A stretch of 34,867 bases of DNA from a virus (lineage: Duplodnaviria; Heunggongvirae; Uroviricota; Caudoviricetes), in IMG/VR virus record IMGVR_UViG_2684622580_000006. One strand, 5' to 3'. The position numbers and the translations under genes were made by a program. Shown one piece after another: positions 8,390-15,923 of the stretch (positions within the stretch are counted from its first letter, which is position 1; each line of letters opens with the position of its first letter). The notes below the pieces were generated by a model. It was not told where the DNA came from and did no database searches. It saw nothing but the letters and a program-made list of their open reading frames with translations.

Positions 8390-8600
8390 ATCGCACAGCA
8401 CTTTTGAAGATCTGTTTCAGACGGTTGATAGAGACACGATCTGGTGAAAGATGTCGGATTTGTATACCACAATATTTCATTACATCATGATTACAAAGGA
8501 TTTGATGGCAGTTGTAATGCGATTCAACGCGATGCATCACCGTGTCCGTTCTTTTCAAAGAGCATTTGCAGTTTGCACACTGATGGTCAAATTTTGTCAT
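8388..8600 (-). CDS. Small Cys/His-rich protein (70 aa), possible zinc-binding / HNH-like
   Basis: Start moved to M26 of the track ORF, where gaggaag SD precedes the ATG at 8600. Sequence MTKFDHQCANCKCSL...HRVESHYNCHQILCNHDVMKYC. HNH assignment uncertain. Confidence 0.4.
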   Translation of the reverse strand: MTKFDHQCANCKCSLKRTDTVMHRVESHYNCHQILCNHDVMKYCGIQIRHLSPDRVSINRLKQIFKSAVR

Positions 8601-8690
8601 AGATACTTCCTCTAAAACTGTATTTATACACTGTGCACAGTGATGATATATTACTATGCATGAACTTGATTTCATGCTTTATAAGTTTTA

Positions 8691-8719
8691 TTGAGTCTCA
8701 CAAAATGATAGATTATCCT
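8691..8719 (+). promoter_or_regulatory. Candidate sigma70 promoter TTGAGT-17-TATCCT for the 8769 gene
   Basis: Hexamers read by eye in the divergent intergenic region; weak match. Confidence 0.25.
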
Positions 8720-8768
8720 ATGTGAATACAAACAGTTATAACCGACAGATTAATGGGTTGAGGACGTA

Positions 8769-9245
8769 ATGGACAATGAACTGAAAAAACTTATACACGC
8801 ATTCAGAAATGCTCTCGTTATGGCTGCGGATACACATTCATTTGGGTGTTTCAGTATGCCAAGATGGTCAGAGTTAAACAGTTTTCCACATGGTTGCTGT
8901 GACTTAGCAAGTAATTTTCTGGCTCAATATCTCACAGACTATGGATATGAGCCTGAAATAATTTGGTTTGAATGCTGCGAAGAACTAAACAAATATATCA
9001 AATCACACGTAGTTGTTAGGATTAACGATTACTATGTTGATTTAACACGAAATCAATTTGATGATCATAATGGAAGAGTATTGATTGAAGACAAATTCGG
9101 TTCCATTCCACGATTAATTAAACAAATAAAATCAATGAACTCAAATAATGTTGAGGATAGAAATATCAATATTAATACATTTAATTCAAGTGGGTATGAA
9201 CTCTACAGCTATATCAAAAAAATTGCGAATAATTTGATTAACTGA
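8769..9245 (+). CDS. Transglutaminase/papain-like Cys-His-Asp fold protein (paralog A, 158 aa)
   Basis: FPHGC(43)C(44)DLASNFLAQYL then SH(80)VVVRINDYYVD(91)LT, which is the order and spacing of Cys-helix, His-strand, Asp-strand in transglutaminase-like cysteine peptidases. SD gagga. Confidence 0.45.
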   Translation: MDNELKKLIHAFRNALVMAADTHSFGCFSMPRWSELNSFPHGCCDLASNFLAQYLTDYGYEPEIIWFECCEELNKYIKSHVVVRINDYYVDLTRNQFDDHNGRVLIEDKFGSIPRLIKQIKSMNSNNVEDRNININTFNSSGYELYSYIKKIANNLIN

Positions 9246-9270
9246 ATAAAATTATTTTAAAAAGGAAAAG

Positions 9271-9304
9271 AACCAGCATTGGAAATTTATTAAACATGTT
9301 GGTT
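9271..9304 (+). terminator. Hairpin aaccagcat / atgttggtt (9 bp with one G-U) followed by ttataat
   Basis: Read directly between paralog A and paralog B. The T-rich tail contains a perfect TATAAT (9306-9311) that could serve as the -10 for the next gene. Confidence 0.4.
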
Positions 9305-9341
9305 TTATAATCGATAAAACAATCTGATTGGTGAGAATAAA

Positions 9342-9848
9342 ATGAATAATAATGAAATGAAGCAACAAATAAATGAATTGTCTTCTTATGTTCTGGACAA
9401 GACAATCAAAAAAGAGAAGGCATGTCTCTACATGAGTGCATATCTTTGCGCACTTATCAATGACAACATGAGAATAACCGCAAGATTGATTTCTGGGTCA
9501 CTTGTTATAAAAAACACTAAGATTTTCTCACATGAGCCTATACTGCCGATACTTACTTCGGGGAGCAATTATACCGGAGAATGGGATGGTCATGCTTGGG
9601 TTGAGGTCGCTGGATATATATGCGATTTATCAATCTTTTGTACAATTTTTTCAGAAAGTACATCAACTGAATTGCAGGATGTTTTCATGCAAACATTTGA
9701 TAGATACTATGAATTCTTAATCGCACCAAGAGAAAAACTAGAAGCAGCAGATATTTGCTATAAAGAATGCGAAGAATTAGGTAATGAACAAATAGATATT
9801 CTGATTCACTCAGGAATCAAATCAGGTATCTTAGTCAATCCAGAATGA
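9342..9848 (+). CDS. Transglutaminase-like Cys-His-Asp fold protein (paralog B, 168 aa)
   Basis: KAC(28)LYMSAYL then WDGH(84)AWVEVAGYICD(95)LS. GHAWVEV...D closely resembles the HAWVEVY...D core of transglutaminase-like domains. Confidence 0.5.
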   Translation: MNNNEMKQQINELSSYVLDKTIKKEKACLYMSAYLCALINDNMRITARLISGSLVIKNTKIFSHEPILPILTSGSNYTGEWDGHAWVEVAGYICDLSIFCTIFSESTSTELQDVFMQTFDRYYEFLIAPREKLEAADICYKECEELGNEQIDILIHSGIKSGILVNPE

Positions 9849-10567
9849 TTACAGAGGATAAAATGGAAGCAAACACTTTTATCGACCGTTTTTTTCATAG
9901 TTCTTATGAATTGACAGATTTTCGTCACGTTGGCGAACGAGACATTAACTCATTGTATACATTTCTGAATTTACTCCATTCTCTAAATGATCGTTTCAGC
10001 AAGGAATTTGGGATAGCTCAACTGGCCAAAAGGCCAGAGTTTAAATTATTACGTTTGATACGTAATTATTTTCAACATGTAGGGGATGTGGACGAATTCC
10101 GTCTATTTCAGACTCGTGATGCCATTTTGACTTCACATATGGAAATGATCATCATCCCAACAGCTTTAGTAGCTCGTGCCATCGAAAGTTTTCGAAACCA
10201 ACCACATAATAAGAAAGATCCAGTACGGGCTGAAAAAGAACTTTCATCCATTGCATCAGCTATCAGCGATTTTGAATATCTTTGTGATAATACGGATCTT
10301 TTTAGAGAAAACCCTCCTTTTCATGATACTGATAATACATATTTCTTAGGTTTTGACCTTTATAAATCCGTGTATAATATTACCAATATCGTAGCAGATA
10401 TATGCAGGAAAAGGGATGAATTTGCAATAAAAAAATGCGTTCAAGAGCTTGAAAAAGAATACACCGAAATGAATAACATACCAAAAGAAAATATATTATT
10501 ACTTGCGGGAAGTCCACCGCCACTACTAACAACCCAAGGTTTTGTGTTTCCTAAAAGGGATAGATAA
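9845..10567 (+). CDS. HEPN-domain protein (putative RNase effector, Abi-like)
   Basis: 240 aa, mostly helical. LLRLIR(73)NYFQH(78)VGD is a canonical HEPN R-x4-H (RNxxxH) motif at 10061-10078. ATGA overlap with the upstream gene at 9845-9848; alternative start ATG 9863 with agagga SD. Confidence 0.6.
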   Translation: MITEDKMEANTFIDRFFHSSYELTDFRHVGERDINSLYTFLNLLHSLNDRFSKEFGIAQLAKRPEFKLLRLIRNYFQHVGDVDEFRLFQTRDAILTSHMEMIIIPTALVARAIESFRNQPHNKKDPVRAEKELSSIASAISDFEYLCDNTDLFRENPPFHDTDNTYFLGFDLYKSVYNITNIVADICRKRDEFAIKKCVQELEKEYTEMNNIPKENILLLAGSPPPLLTTQGFVFPKRDR

Positions 10568-10609
10568 ATTAAAGTAATTATAGTTCGTATAGATTTTCTT
10601 TTACCAAAT

Positions 10610-10649
10610 ATTGTTGATTCGCTATTATACCTTAATAGCAATCAACAAT
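10610..10649. terminator. Long bidirectional hairpin (attgttgatt-c-gctatta-tacct-taatagc-aatcaacaat)
   Basis: 17 paired positions with one bulge, between convergent genes ending at 10567 (+) and 10656 (-). Confidence 0.6.
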
Positions 10650-10655
10650 TGATTT

Positions 10656-11264
10656 TCATATTGCTTTGGTCGGCTTTGAAATTTCAATTTTCACAATTAA
10701 CAGTTCTTCGTCAAAAGATAACTTATTCCCCTTCATTACTTTTCTCATAACGCCGTTCTCATTTTCGAGAGCAGCGTTTTTTAGTTTTAAGGCTTCAATC
10801 TCCTTTCTCAATTCTTCCAATTCGTTGGTGATAACATCAACTTTCTGTTCAGTAGGAAATTCAATTTCTTCTTTAATCTCTACAAAACTCCCAACATATT
10901 GCTGAACAAAGTTATCGGTGTCTTTTTTGTGAATCATAGTCAAGTCTGAACCTAAAGCTTTCCAGTTACGACCTTCACAGCAAACGATCACAGCTTTTGT
11001 CATATCACTTGAATAAGCAACGATAGCAGGCTTGTCGTTCAGTTCTGACATACCGATTTGGAATTTACGCATATCTTTTACAGTCAACGCGTTTTCAACT
11101 TTGCTTAACATCTTTGCTCTGATGTTACGGTGAATCTCTGTAAAGCTACCGATAAAACTTTTCAGCTTGTTTCTGTTATTGGTCATTTCGTTAGTCTTAA
11201 CGATTTTTTTATTCAAGCTAACGTTAGTAGTCCCGTTCAAGTTTTCAAAGATTGAGAAATTCAT
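10656..11264 (-). CDS. Hypothetical protein, 202 aa, internal F[IV]GSF[TV]EI repeat and C-terminal coiled coil
   Basis: ORF coupled to the upstream small HTH gene (TAATG overlap). ELEELRKEIEALKLKNAALENEN is a coiled coil. No recognisable catalytic motif. Confidence 0.5.
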   Translation of the reverse strand: MNFSIFENLNGTTNVSLNKKIVKTNEMTNNRNKLKSFIGSFTEIHRNIRAKMLSKVENALTVKDMRKFQIGMSELNDKPAIVAYSSDMTKAVIVCCEGRNWKALGSDLTMIHKKDTDNFVQQYVGSFVEIKEEIEFPTEQKVDVITNELEELRKEIEALKLKNAALENENGVMRKVMKGNKLSFDEELLIVKIEISKPTKAI

Positions 11265-11428
11265 TATTTGATGTCCTTTTTAACAGGTTGAGTTCTGATA
11301 TTTCGTTTCTTGCAAGCGTTATATAGCGTTGCTTTGTTCATCTGTTTAGATTCTGCAATCTGCTGAAATGTCTCACCAGCATCTAGACGTGATTCGATTT
11401 CAAATTTGTTTGGAATAAACTTTGCCAT
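11264..11428 (-). CDS. Small HTH DNA-binding protein (54 aa, below the ORF-track cutoff)
   Basis: Hand translation: MAKFIPNKFEIESRLDAGETFQQIAESKQMNKATLYNACKKRNIRTQPVKKDIK. GETFQQIAESKQMNKATLYN is a resolvase/Hin-type HTH. The stop overlaps the start of the 202-aa gene. Confidence 0.55.
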   Translation of the reverse strand: MAKFIPNKFEIESRLDAGETFQQIAESKQMNKATLYNACKKRNIRTQPVKKDIK

Positions 11429-11450
11429 TTGGTTGCCTTTTTATGATGTT

Positions 11451-11476
11451 GAAAAAAGAGCGCTCTTGCGAGCGCT
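11451..11476 (-). terminator. Intrinsic terminator for leftward transcription (agcgctc-ttgc-gagcgct followed by T6 on the minus strand)
   Basis: 7-bp GC-rich stem 11459-11465/11470-11476. The A-run 11452-11457 on the plus strand equals a U-run after the hairpin on the minus strand. Confidence 0.5.
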
Positions 11477-12419
11477 TCAAACTTTAAGGAATTTTTAAAT
11501 GAACTTATCGTTGTTCACATAGCTATTTTATATCGGCTATTCGATAGCGTAAACAAAGAGAGAAAACAACGAGGAGAAGAAACTCTCTATTGTTCTTCAT
11601 AGGGTATTTAGTGCCCTCACCGAAAGTGTAAGCAAAATTTTTAAAATAATTTGAAAGCAATCGGAGCAAACGTATCGATGCACTGATAAAACGCATCGAT
11701 AGCGCATCGATGCTTCTCGGCAAAGCGCATGGACCTTGAAGAAAATCGCCCTATAAGAACAATTGGATAAAGATGATATGGAAGGATATAGAAGCAGTAA
11801 ACACTACAAAACCAGATCTGAAAAACAGATTTCGCGAAGCGCGGGCGAAGCCCTAATTAATAACATTAGCGCGTAAGCGCGACAGATAGAAGTTAATCAA
11901 CATCGCTATGATCATAGATGTTGAACTTGATGATCAGTAATTATTACTAGATACGATTATTAGCGCTTCGCGCGTTCGCTACGCTCACAATATTGTTTTC
12001 TGATCATAATCAATAACTTCTAACTGCATTATAACCAGATCTGAAAACCTGATAAACTTAACTATCGTTAATTAAATCAGATAGCGTTAGTGAGTTCTCC
12101 ATCGCTTCGCTCAGTCGAACGGGCAAGCGCCGTCTTTGATAGAGATCTGGTCTTTATCGTTTTAGCTGACCTTATCGTCCCTCCTCGCTTCTCCCTGCTC
12201 TACTGACCATCTTGATACACCTTGTTCATCTATACCAGCCAAATTGAACCTGATGCACCCTGCTTTGATACCGACCTTGATTGTTGTCGCTTCGCCTGCG
12301 GCTCGCTTACCACCGTTATTGAATCGGACCAATAGAGATTCCTAGTTTACTAAATACAAGCGTGATTCAGAGAAACATCTGAAAGTCAACACTTCTATTC
12401 AAATTCAAACTTTAAGGAA
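11476..12419. other. ORF-poor, repeat-rich segment bounded by a 16-nt perfect direct repeat (ttcaaactttaaggaa at 11476-11491 and 12404-12419)
   Basis: No ORF of 60 aa or more except one implausible TTG-started minus ORF. Contains iteron-like repeats, palindromes, a GATC cluster and short NUMOD3-like reading frames (see findings). Confidence 0.6.
11674..11713. promoter_or_regulatory. Three GCATCGATGC-type palindromic sites (operator-like)
   Basis: gtATCGATGC 11672-11681, GCATCGATag 11693-11702, and the perfect 10-bp palindrome GCATCGATGC 11704-13. Confidence 0.35.
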
Positions 12420-12426
12420 ACTCAAA

Positions 12427-13041
12427 ATGTACAAAAGAACTATCAACAACGTAACTTACAAAACCCGTTCTGAACTGGATACTGAGCCAACCGGATTCAG
12501 CGTTTATAAAACCGTTTTCAGTATCAACAATGAATCATTCGTTTATTACGGCAAACAAGCTTTCAACGGTCAGCCTGATATGTCGTATATCGGTTCTGGT
12601 CGCAGAGTTCAGGAAAAACTCGCTGAAATGACCGAGTCAGATATCGTTTATAAAATCGTTCTACAGAATTTTGAATCAGAACAAGAAGCGTATGACTTCG
12701 AATCTGAATGCATTCAATCAGCACGCAAATCGAAGGTTAATATTTTAAATATATCTAAAGGAAACTCCGGTGGTAAGGTCTTTGACAAAATGACAGAAGA
12801 ACAAATTAAACAACGTAACGCGAAAATCTCTATGAGCATGATGGGTCACGAAGTCTCTGATGAAACTCGTCGTAAAATCTCAGAAGCGAAATCTGGTCAG
12901 ACTCGCTCTGATAATACGAAACAAAAAATCGGTGATGCTCTGCACGGTCGCAAAACTGGACCTAAATCAGAAGAAACCAAACGCAGAATGTCAGAAGCAC
13001 ATAAAGCACGTCACGCTAACAAGGAGACAGCGAATGTCTAA
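12427..13041 (+). CDS. Free-standing GIY-YIG homing endonuclease with NUMOD3 repeats (T4 Seg-like / I-TevI-like)
   Basis: 204 aa. GFSVYKTVFSINNESFVYYGKQ is GIY-x11-YIG. Three NUMOD3-type repeats are present (SDETRRKISEAKSG, TKQKIGDALHGRK, SEETKRRMSEAHK). Confidence 0.85.
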   Translation: MYKRTINNVTYKTRSELDTEPTGFSVYKTVFSINNESFVYYGKQAFNGQPDMSYIGSGRRVQEKLAEMTESDIVYKIVLQNFESEQEAYDFESECIQSARKSKVNILNISKGNSGGKVFDKMTEEQIKQRNAKISMSMMGHEVSDETRRKISEAKSGQTRSDNTKQKIGDALHGRKTGPKSEETKRRMSEAHKARHANKETANV

Positions 13042-13527: not shown

Positions 13528-13929
13528 TCATTGTGAACCTCCATTTGTTTTATTGGTACAGCGTAAAAACTGATCGCGTATATACGCTTTTGATTTACCT
13601 GTCATTCGCTTACCGAATTCAATGAAATCTCCTTTCGTCTGACGATAAACAATCAAACTGATTTCAGAAGGTTTTTTGTGAGCACTATTTGATGCTAGCT
13701 GTTTTTCAATGTTCGGGATTTCTGATTCTTTAACTTCACCAGCTTCAATTTCAGAAGCAATAACTTCCTCTTCAACTGGCTTCACAGTGTATTTTTCAAT
13801 ATTTGCTTTAACGCGACGAACAACAGAGCGGGAAACTTCAAATTGTTCAGCAATCTTACGTTCTGATAAATCTGTTCCTGCGTTAATCATTGCAGCTATT
13901 TTATTTTCGATAGTCGGTTCAGTTTTCAA
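13528..13929 (-). CDS. HTH DNA-binding protein, 133 aa
   Basis: The N-terminus IAAMINAGTDLSERKIAEQFEVSRSVVRRV is a resolvase/terminase-small-type HTH, followed by an acidic linker. Divergent from terL. Confidence 0.5.
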   Translation of the reverse strand: MKTEPTIENKIAAMINAGTDLSERKIAEQFEVSRSVVRRVKANIEKYTVKPVEEEVIASEIEAGEVKESEIPNIEKQLASNSAHKKPSEISLIVYRQTKGDFIEFGKRMTGKSKAYIRDQFLRCTNKTNGGSQ

Positions 13930-14039
13930 TTCGATGTTCTCCGTGTTGAGATGGATTGAACTTTAACAATCCAGGTCCGAGGTGCAAGCGTCCTGAAAAT
14001 TATTTGTTGGATTCTTCATAAATACACTCAGAGGTGACT

Positions 14040-15923
14040 ATGAAAAGTATCAACAAATTAAAGAAAATCATTAAAGCATCAAAAATTTTTATCATGCCTC
14101 CTGCTGATTACACGCCGTCAGAATGGGTCGAACAGAACTTAATCTTCCCTGATGGACCATATGCGGATCAGCCAATGCGACTTTTTGAGTTCCAGCGCGG
14201 AATGATTGACGCTATCAAAGGCAATAAGAAGAAAATCGTTCTTATGACTTCTGCACAGATCGGCAAAACGACGATTCTGAACGGTGTTCTGTTCTATAAA
14301 TCAGCTATAGATCCAGGCAACGCGGGTGTTTTACAGTCTACAGCGAAAGAAACGACACAATGGTTATCAGGTAAAATTAAACCGATGATTGATGCATCGG
14401 AAGAAATGCAGAAAATCGTTACTGATAAAAACGACAGAAATGCAGTTAATAACACCAGTCAGATTCAGCTACGAAATGGTGGTTTCTGGTATTTCATGAG
14501 TTTGAACTCTCCTTCTCACTTGCGTGGTAAAACTCTGCCATTGCTTCTGCTTGATGAAGTTGATGCTGTCGATACTGATACAGAAGAAGGCAACCCAATA
14601 ATGATTGCCGAACAGCGTGCAACAACTTTCGGTTCAGACGCTCGAATCTTTATCAGTTCGACGCCTACTGGCAAATACGGTGCCATCAATACTCAATACG
14701 AAGCATCCGATAGACGTAAATTCCATATCGATTGTCCTCATTGTGGTCGTTCTCATGAACTCGTTTGGGAAAACATTAAATTCGATTGGATTAAACATGA
14801 TGGTAAATCAGTACCAGATCCAGAAACTGCGCGTCTTGAATGTCCTTCTTGTAATGAAGCAATCTCAGAAGCACAACGAGCAAGAGCATTAGCAAACGGT
14901 AATTGGATTGTGACTAATCCAGAAGCTGATACAGCAGGATTCCATGTAAGTCGTTTATACAGTCCTATGAGTTCAATAAAATCTGTCGTTCAAGATTTCA
15001 AAAATGCTTATCAAACATTCAGTTTGTCAACGTTCTATAACACCGTATTAGGTCTGCCTTTTGATGATCTGAACGAGGATGTGGAAATCAGTAAATTAAA
15101 CGAACTGAAAACTGATATCAGTATCAGAAATATTCCAGAAGATTGTCTTTTCTTAACTGCGGGTGTTGACCAACAGCAAGACCGTTTAGAAGTAACCTTG
15201 ATGGGTCACAACGAACGAACCGTTTATATTCTTGCACATCGTAGCTTTATGACAATGAACGCTGAGGTTATCGATTCCCCTGCTTATAAAGAACTTCTTG
15301 CATACGTTAAAGCACCGTTCAGAACAGCTTTGGGAAGAAAGGTTCCTTTAGCGTGGGTGAACGTCGATAGCTCAAACGGTCGAGCAACTAAAACAATCTA
15401 TCGTTTCTGCTCTCAGTGGACAAACCTGAAAGCAATTAAAGGTGCCAGCTCAGTTGATGCCCCTTATGTTCCAACGAAAATCACGAAAACCGGTGGTTAT
15501 GAACTTTATATGATTGGTGTAAACCAAGGAAAAAACTTAGTTCGTGAACTGCTAAACAGAAGCGTGAAATCTGGAAATACACCAGTCAGAGTCGAAATCT
15601 CTGATGATGTTCCAGATGATTACTGCGAACAGCTTATGTCCGAAGAATTAAAACGCTCTGGCAATACTGTTAGATGGGTTATTAAACAAGGCGGTGTTCG
15701 TAACGAAGGTCTTGACTGCTTTAACTACGGTTATTGTGCGCGTCTGCAAGTTCTAGAGAAAATCAAATTTCACGAGTGGAGGAAACTCGCTGCTAAATCT
15801 GATATTGAAATGCCAGAAGAACAAAACGAAACAAATTCTCCTGTTATTCAAACTCCTGAACCACGTCGAAACATTATCAAACGAAACAGACCAGTTAATA
15901 AGCCTCGTGGTTTCGGATTATAA
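14040..15923 (+). CDS. Terminase large subunit, lambda GpA family
   Basis: Collinear blocks with lambda gpA: Walker A SAQIGKTT, LLLLDEVD, FHIDCPHCGRSHE zinc motif, GFHVSRLYSP, LTAGVDQQQDRLEVTLMG, RNEGLDCFNYGY. ATG 14040 with agaggtg SD (track start GTG 14034). Confidence 0.95.
   Translation: MKSINKLKKIIKASKIFIMPPADYTPSEWVEQNLIFPDGPYADQPMRLFEFQRGMIDAIKGNKKKIVLMTSAQIGKTTILNGVLFYKSAIDPGNAGVLQSTAKETTQWLSGKIKPMIDASEEMQKIVTDKNDRNAVNNTSQIQLRNGGFWYFMSLNSPSHLRGKTLPLLLLDEVDAVDTDTEEGNPIMIAEQRATTFGSDARIFISSTPTGKYGAINTQYEASDRRKFHIDCPHCGRSHELVWENIKFDWIKHDGKSVPDPETARLECPSCNEAISEAQRARALANGNWIVTNPEADTAGFHVSRLYSPMSSIKSVVQDFKNAYQTFSLSTFYNTVLGLPFDDLNEDVEISKLNELKTDISIRNIPEDCLFLTAGVDQQQDRLEVTLMGHNERTVYILAHRSFMTMNAEVIDSPAYKELLAYVKAPFRTALGRKVPLAWVNVDSSNGRATKTIYRFCSQWTNLKAIKGASSVDAPYVPTKITKTGGYELYMIGVNQGKNLVRELLNRSVKSGNTPVRVEISDDVPDDYCEQLMSEELKRSGNTVRWVIKQGGVRNEGLDCFNYGYCARLQVLEKIKFHEWRKLAAKSDIEMPEEQNETNSPVIQTPEPRRNIIKRNRPVNKPRGFGL

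Follow-up and report, generated by a model that had tools for sequence, protein, structure and literature searches.

Do three neighbouring genes that are inherited together in a prophage form one conflict system, or do they lie side by side as separate pieces of cargo? The question is raised by a viral genome of the class Caudoviricetes (IMG/VR record IMGVR_UViG_2684622580_000006; 34,867 nucleotides, all of which is referred to here as the window), a prophage that is integrated beside ybiT in Escherichia coli and encodes a large serine recombinase/integrase. Between its terS and terL genes, three open reading frames (ORFs) are present on the same strand, namely gene A (8769–9245, 158 amino acids, aa), gene B (9342–9848, 168 aa) and gene C (9845–10567, 240 aa as the longest ORF). 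The initial annotation had put them forward as a candidate for a single undescribed system that pairs two paralogous transglutaminase-like proteins with a HEPN protein. Its observations proved largely right, while its interpretation was supported in part. We consider it fairly probable that A, B and C are accessory genes, each mobile on its own, that have come to be stacked in one slot of a temperate prophage found in E. coli and Enterobacter, because each of the three families travels alone outside this prophage lineage.

Hidden Markov models (HMMs) of the A, B and C families were run on every ORF of 81 fetched loci. The three genes occurred together only in one prophage lineage, always in the same slot and with at least 87% identity. 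This lineage is found in E. coli, in the Enterobacter cloacae complex and in IMG/VR contigs, and includes one variant that is 87% identical; the A–C region is 100% identical in four complete E. coli chromosomes. Since all trio loci belong to one lineage and share one slot, they constitute a single evolutionary observation. Co-occurrence in unrelated genomes or elements, the mark of a multi-gene system, was not found for A, B and C in these loci, and the proposal of one three-gene system failed on this neighbourhood comparison. Among 50,697 phage records, neither megablast/blastn with the A–C region nor tblastn with C gave a match.

Outside the lineage, C stands alone in about 24 distinct loci and was found on 22 plasmids, being a lone gene in the plasmid loci inspected. 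Its nearest outside relative (61% identity) is a lone plasmid gene flanked by genes on the opposite strand, and on Klebsiella and Serratia plasmids it is solo, with large gaps or insertion sequence (IS) elements around it. Within chromosomal integron arrays, C-family genes have attC-like repeats on both sides (loci L030 4864–5853, L032 4857–5857 and L031 4880–5821) and are, therefore, one-gene integron cassettes; the hosts are Aliivibrio logei, Vibrio sp. TBV020 and Marinomonas alcarazii. In all, the family is carried by gammaproteobacterial prophages, plasmids and integron cassettes and occurs in clinical Klebsiella, Serratia, Enterobacter and E. coli, with more distant relatives in metagenome-assembled genomes of Campylobacterota. 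Its neighbours include the defence candidates PDC-S31/DUF2971 in Alloalcanivorax, PDC-S15/FRG in Pantoea and PD-Lambda-1 in Shewanella. Two further neighbours of C-family genes carry HEPN-like motifs of their own, RHIGIH (L003 7489–8085) and RNKWVH (L006 2491–2976).

The initial annotation had inferred coupled expression of B and C from an ATGA overlap of the two genes. The longest ORF of C (9845–10567, 240 aa) does create this overlap. The real start is probably at position 9863, since the homologues of C all begin at the ME..TF residues, RefSeq places the start there, and a good Shine–Dalgarno sequence (AGAGGA) precedes 9863 while none precedes 9845. The overlap is, thus, most likely an artefact of longest-ORF calling, and gene C as used below spans 9863–10567 on the plus strand and encodes 234 aa. 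Counted from this start, 14 nt separate B and C, a distance compatible with co-transcription. A promoter scan returned sites at chance level, and the sole terminator-like site in the cargo falls inside gene C. Within the window, B and C are probably co-transcribed, so this part of the earlier claim still fits.

C is a probable HEPN-superfamily RNase, as predicted from its motif. The codons of RNYFQH, an Rx4H motif, lie at 10061–10078 on the plus strand (R73/H78 in the 240-aa numbering, R67/H72 in the 234-aa numbering). The HEPN motif has been defined as R-[N/D/H]-x3-H, with a conserved Rx4-6H and a polar residue after the arginine (PMC3710099), and the motif of C conforms to this definition. 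We retrieved 62 homologues, nearly all unannotated. In an alignment of 35 of them, which spans several orders of Gammaproteobacteria, R73, N74, Y75 and H78 are invariant down to 34% identity. The AlphaFold2 (AF2) model of C (predicted local distance difference test, pLDDT, 89.5) is all-alpha with beta-hairpin inserts. Two HEPN families of Pfam gave weak, sub-threshold matches in nine of the 35 members (best E 0.015–0.04): Ribonuc_2-5A (KEN) in six, exactly on the motif stretch, and HEPN_Cthe2314 in three, over residues 7–110. HEPN_AbiU2 (PF18734) matched none of the 35 at E≤1. Two homologues are named 'HEPN AbiU2-like' by their sources, and neither matched HEPN_AbiU2 even at E≤10. A sequence-profile search of the PDB with C returned only the AP-3 delta subunit, which is noise. 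Taken together, it is likely from the sequence that C is a HEPN protein: the motif reported initially is encoded and invariant, and the fold is probable, with profile matches below threshold.

Gene B (9342–9848, plus strand) encodes a protein that can confidently be modelled as having a papain/transglutaminase fold, with Cys28, His84 and Asp95 as its triad. Its AF2 model (pLDDT 94.4) matches structures of this fold, and its papain-fold relatives include the injected effectors SseI, SpvD and Ceg10; a sequence-profile search of the PDB gave a weak match to SpvD at the cysteine. Among 46 homologues, C28 and H84 never vary and D95 is conserved in at least 90%, and the 12 closest sequences keep the whole triad unchanged. 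The protein scores 15.7 bits against the DUF2026 model of Pfam (PF09641), for which the cut-off is 25, and five of the 46 family members match DUF2026 at E≤0.01. By its score below the gathering threshold, B is, therefore, a distant relative of DUF2026 and not a member. The locus search for B was based on the alignment of 12 sequences, the broader alignment being too diverse. It placed B alone in 14 loci outside the lineage, with no conserved neighbour and with no C-like neighbour in any of them; the closest outside relative (50% identity, locus L074) is solo. As a separate observation, an IMG/VR phage contig (L075 3989–6301) carries a B-family gene and, two genes after it, encodes an unrelated protein of 269 aa that bears the HEPN-like signature KVRNYVAH.

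Gene A (8769–9245, plus strand) probably has a papain/transglutaminase-like fold as well, close to YunG, to judge from profile matches and conserved residues (Cys44, His80 and Asp91). It has more than 100 homologues in Enterobacterales. In 35 of these C27, C44, H80, D91, T93, Q96 and F97 are invariant, and the triad stays so once two distant members are added. YunG matched ten of the 35 members, all below the cut-off, and Gln_amidase ('papain fold toxin') gave a weak match (E 0.034) in one distant member. Sequence-profile searches of the PDB with A returned nothing relevant, only NusA and arginyl-tRNA synthetase as noise. The Cys-His-Asp triads that had been noticed in A and B are, thus, conserved beyond chance in both families, and the transglutaminase-like fold attributed to the two holds for B and is only probable for A. 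Calling them paralogous was too strong. A direct BLASTP comparison of A and B gave E 0.73 over 15 residues, that is, no detectable pairwise similarity, and hhalign of the two families gave a probability of 41% (E 2.7e-4) with Cys, His and Asp in register. If A and B are related at all, these alignments allow no more than remote kinship within a superfamily.

Away from this lineage, A genes on plasmids and islands typically share an ATGA overlap with a KfrA_N DNA-binding gene upstream of them, and in Klebsiella and Salmonella the two form a conserved two-gene operon on such elements (loci L016–L023, 4381–5516). In other settings A has ParA and resolvase genes nearby, or else an Abi_C gene together with a gene of the DpnII-MboI type. 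In the window, A has its own Shine–Dalgarno sequence (GAGGA) and is followed by a weak hairpin (9269–9306, plus strand; minimum free energy, MFE, -11.2 kcal/mol, z -1.8) that overlaps a TATAAT box (9306–9311) between A and B. Both elements had been described as setting A apart, and both are present, the hairpin being the weaker of those at this locus, with an equally good folding in nine of 200 shuffles. Their position between A and B suggests that A and B–C are separate transcription units.

The cargo lies in a variable position of the prophage. The backbone encodes terS at 7683–8372 (phrog_57) and a GpA-type terL at 14034–15923, after which head and tail genes follow. Three diverged relatives of the prophage (MS 115-1, 2021CK-01361 and PSS-15) occupy the same ybiT site. 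In the prophages of E. coli MS 115-1 and 2021CK-01361, the place of A–B–C is filled by a retron Ec67-family reverse transcriptase (RT)/endonuclease (locus L084 8191–9945 and locus L086 4027–5796, equivalent to window 8601–10655), and in the PSS-15 prophage (locus L085) the slot is without any cargo. DNA homology between the window and MS 115-1 breaks at 8215 and returns at 10649, and comparison with the sister prophages delimits a variable segment of 8216–10648. G+C content is 31–36% over A–C vs about 39% in the rest of the phage. Related prophages, thus, carry differing defence cargo at the same backbone position; by this comparison, A, B and C sit in a true prophage hotspot that holds a known defence system elsewhere, and the cargo island between terS and terL proposed by the initial annotation is borne out.

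The slot lies downstream of terS and is bordered by a small zinc-ribbon gene and a coiled-coil gene, and it splits a minus-strand operon (coiled-coil gene, then zinc-ribbon gene) between terS and terL. The left border, a 70-aa zinc-ribbon ORF of the phage backbone at 8388–8600 on the minus strand, is absent from the RefSeq annotation. It shares 30% identity (pairwise E 2e-7) with a protein annotated as zinc-ribbon in the same position of the PSS-15 prophage, and 2021CK-01361 has a 70-aa gene at the matching position; the ORF is probably a real backbone gene. The flanking hairpins proved real, with z of about -4 against shuffled sequences. The GC-rich left one (8373–8387; MFE -14.7 kcal/mol, z -4.2) directly follows the terS stop at the left edge of the variable region, between terS (plus strand) and the minus-strand zinc-ribbon ORF. 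The right one (10610–10649) is a stem-loop of 17 pairs (10 + 7, with one bulged base; z -4.2 on the plus strand and -3.5 on the minus strand) and sits at the right slot edge between gene C and the convergent 202-aa coiled-coil gene on the minus strand. DNA homology with the sister prophages is lost about 155 nt ahead of the terS stop, and relatives differ in the C-terminal part of terS; a recombination break is, therefore, located inside terS.

Just upstream of terS, a YuaX-like (PF27363) small ORF (6298–6597, plus strand; 99 aa as the longest ORF, 95 aa by gene finders) abuts a gene for a 298-aa TIR protein of the CAP12/Pycsar type (6597–7493, plus strand; PADLOC candidate PDC-S35, E 1e-70), and the two form a second defence-type cargo pair. 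MS 115-1 conserves this pair, in PSS-15 an IS2 element interrupts it, and the Enterobacter relatives lack it. The retron in the sister slot and the adjacent TIR gene support a conflict-related context for A, B and C, as had been supposed; the relatives of C that lie beside PDC-S15, PDC-S31 and PD-Lambda-1 point the same way. An Rfam scan and a tandem-repeat scan of 8000–12500 found no non-coding RNA and no ToxI-like repeats, which disfavours a type III antitoxin or a retron-like RNA in the cargo.

On the reading of independent cargo, C would be a self-sufficient single-gene module, a candidate for stand-alone HEPN abortive infection. It would form a HEPN-type dimer in which the Rx4H residues (R67/H72 in the 234-aa protein) build a metal-independent RNase site, as established for HEPN domains, whose RNase site is metal-independent and for which R and H are essential (PMC3710099). 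The enzyme might stay inactive in the lysogen and be turned on by a superinfecting phage; once activated, it could cut host or phage RNA and so abort the infection. B would be a DUF2026-like Cys-His-Asp enzyme (a protease, deamidase or transglutaminase) acting on some protein. A would be a second, remotely related Cys-His-Asp protein, which elsewhere is a plasmid or island gene mostly accompanied by a KfrA-like DNA-binding protein. The co-transcription of B and C would be an accident of stacking, not an obligate partnership.

Several results weigh against this picture. B and C lie 14 nt apart and stay together throughout the lineage, down to 87% identity. Distant A-like genes occur in two places, two genes upstream of C in Marinomonas and, on a metagenome contig, 2.2 kb upstream of B; unrelated genes intervene in both cases. 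No HEPN model of Pfam scores above threshold for C, and Foldseek found no match for the C model in the PDB. An enterobacterial clade of C proteins of 224–227 aa is always followed, 8–20 nt downstream, by a 239-aa gene whose product has an HNH-like Cys/His motif and a weak ZorE-HNH match (L001 6001–7414, L003 6001–7421, L025 4968–6413, L052 1–1414 and L053 3968–5413). The pair turns up in differing genomic surroundings and may, therefore, be a two-gene module, and a sister clade with a fixed partner indicates that C-type proteins sometimes keep partners. An A- or B-like identity of the 239-aa protein was ruled out, as neither BLAST nor HMM searches gave a match. A literature lead that could count both ways comes from Vibrio mimicus, in which the C family is present. 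In this species an integron cassette (HNPBCG_15845) described as having a 'HEPN AbiU2 domain' came up enriched in a phage-survivor screen and, cloned along with other cassettes, gave protection from T4 and T7, but could not be cloned alone (bioRxiv 10.64898/2026.03.17.712381). This cassette was likened to C only by domain label and species; if it belongs to the C family, the protection would be direct evidence for the family, and its failure to be cloned alone hints at a toxicity that needs a partner.

One alternative is a two-gene module of B and C confined to this lineage, in which the papain-fold B restrains or activates the HEPN RNase C by cleavage, modification or sensing of a phage protein, with A unrelated. 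The short gap that holds the Shine–Dalgarno sequence of C, without a terminator between the genes, would suit such a module, as would the retention of the pair in every lineage member including the 87%-identical variant, the hairpin and TATAAT box that separate A, and the tightly linked other partner in the sister clade of C. Outside the lineage, however, no C relative has a B-like neighbour, nor the reverse; the nearest outside relatives are solo for both C (61% identity) and B (50%, L074), and C exists as a one-gene integron cassette. We regard this module as possible, if unlikely. A bolder version, in which B was recruited within the lineage as a regulator of C, a protease or deamidase switch licensing or silencing the RNase, and in which small papain-fold proteins of the A and B type are an unrecognised class of conflict effectors in the cargo of phages, plasmids and integrons, seems to us decidedly unlikely. 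If true, the switch would be a form of HEPN control unlike AMPylation by MNT proteins, small antitoxins or CARF ligands.

We think it improbable, too, that the three genes do not protect the host at all and serve instead in counter-defence, establishment or host manipulation, for example as papain-fold enzymes that inactivate host immunity proteins, or with a C protein that is not an active RNase. The location of A-family genes next to KfrA, ParA and resolvase genes in the maintenance regions of plasmids, and the injected effectors SseI, SpvD and Ceg10 among the relatives of B, are what such a role would lead one to expect, and it agrees with the lack of a PADLOC match for A, B and C and with HEPN evidence below threshold for C. 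It sits poorly with the retron in the same slot of sister prophages, with the defence candidates that neighbour C elsewhere and with the invariance of R, N and H of the motif among the aligned C-family proteins, drawn from several gammaproteobacterial orders; integron cassettes, moreover, are known as reservoirs of defence genes (10.1101/2024.07.02.601719).

That A, B and C make up one new three-gene conflict system is very improbable, for although they share strand and hairpin-bounded slot, are transmitted as a unit in E. coli, Enterobacter and IMG/VR contigs and have distant A-like genes near C or B in two unrelated loci, the trio is a single evolutionary observation in one prophage lineage and slot, A has its own Shine–Dalgarno sequence and is divided from B by a hairpin and a promoter-like box, the A family is elsewhere tied to KfrA_N genes on plasmids, and unrelated genes intervene in both of the loci with distant A-like genes.

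Other features of the prophage lie outside the slot. Between the slot and terL are a NUMOD3/homing-endonuclease-like gene (12427–13041, plus strand; phrog_314, PADLOC HEase) and a GntR-type regulator (13528–13929, minus strand). A segment of about 1.7 kb that contains a DUF2163 gene, a gene of 185–191 aa and a lysozyme gene (window 4215–5956) is inverted in loci L010–L013 relative to L014–L015, prophages that are otherwise alike; it adjoins the large serine recombinase and could be an invertible segment or a rearrangement. IS3-family insertions are found in the prohead protease/capsid region in strain 2017.06.05CC (locus L024 22812–24040) and in terL in MS 115-1 (locus L084 14291–15411), and several copies of the prophage are, therefore, probably defective.

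What appears new here is an uncurated, candidate stand-alone HEPN gene resembling those of abortive infection, together with two papain-fold cargo genes. Pfam, NCBIfam, PHROGs and PADLOC offer no model for the C family, and should C prove to be an active single-gene HEPN defence, an uncurated family would join the abortive-infection repertoire. The slot itself, which holds a retron, A–B–C or nothing in otherwise similar prophages, offers a handle for discovery, and two papain-fold families in mobile cargo are reasonable candidates for defence and counter-defence screens. More generally, neighbouring genes with suggestive domains in one lineage of elements are insufficient to establish a system.

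None of A, B and C matched any of the 5027 models of PADLOC-DB v2.0.0 at E≤1, and Pfam, PHROGs and NCBIfam scans of the three gave nothing above threshold. A literature search by RefSeq accession found no mention of them ('YunG' matched author names only), and none of the HEPN systems in the text of DefensePredictor could be matched to C. One close comparison is with the stand-alone HEPN proteins of abortive infection (AbiU2-like, AbiJ, AbiD/F and the ApeA class). Like them, C is small and cytoplasmic, has an invariant R-N-x-x-x-H, lacks a linked antitoxin in most genomes and occurs in defence islands, prophages, plasmids and integron cassettes. It differs in that neither C nor its homologues score above threshold with any model of Pfam, NCBIfam, PHROGs or PADLOC, and its structure model differs by the beta-hairpin inserts and a C-terminal region without a solved relative. 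The setting recalls the defence hotspots of prophages, for example the variable cargo slots in P2/P4-like elements. The slot in the window is likewise a fixed backbone position with varying defence cargo. It belongs to a different phage backbone, however, one that combines a terminase of the GpA type with a serine integrase at ybiT, and it cuts through a minus-strand operon located between terS and terL.

The type VII HEPN-MNT and the RnlA/LsoA-type HEPN toxin–antitoxin pairs also place a HEPN RNase gene beside a small partner gene, as here. The partner in the window has a papain fold, however, and is neither a nucleotidyltransferase nor a small antitoxin, and C has no partner in most genomes. 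B, for its part, is distantly related to the papain-like family DUF2026, of which 2HLY (Atu2299) is a structure, and falls outside that curated family (15.7 vs 25 bits); 2HLY has a serine at the position of the catalytic cysteine (PMC10318531), whereas B retains the cysteine. The earlier remark that no named system is known to pair a HEPN protein with a transglutaminase-like one holds as far as PADLOC-DB is concerned, but fusions of the two were described in 2013: the giant HEPN-transglutaminase-helicase-Vsr proteins of the MTES_1575 type join HEPN to a transglutaminase-like peptidase (Anantharaman et al. 2013; PMC3710099). They are the one described case of both domains in one defence unit, so the pairing as such is not new. 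Its architecture in this prophage is completely different, since the giants are single proteins of >2000 aa with a helicase and a DNase, whereas the window has two small genes that stand apart and belong to families with no linkage elsewhere.

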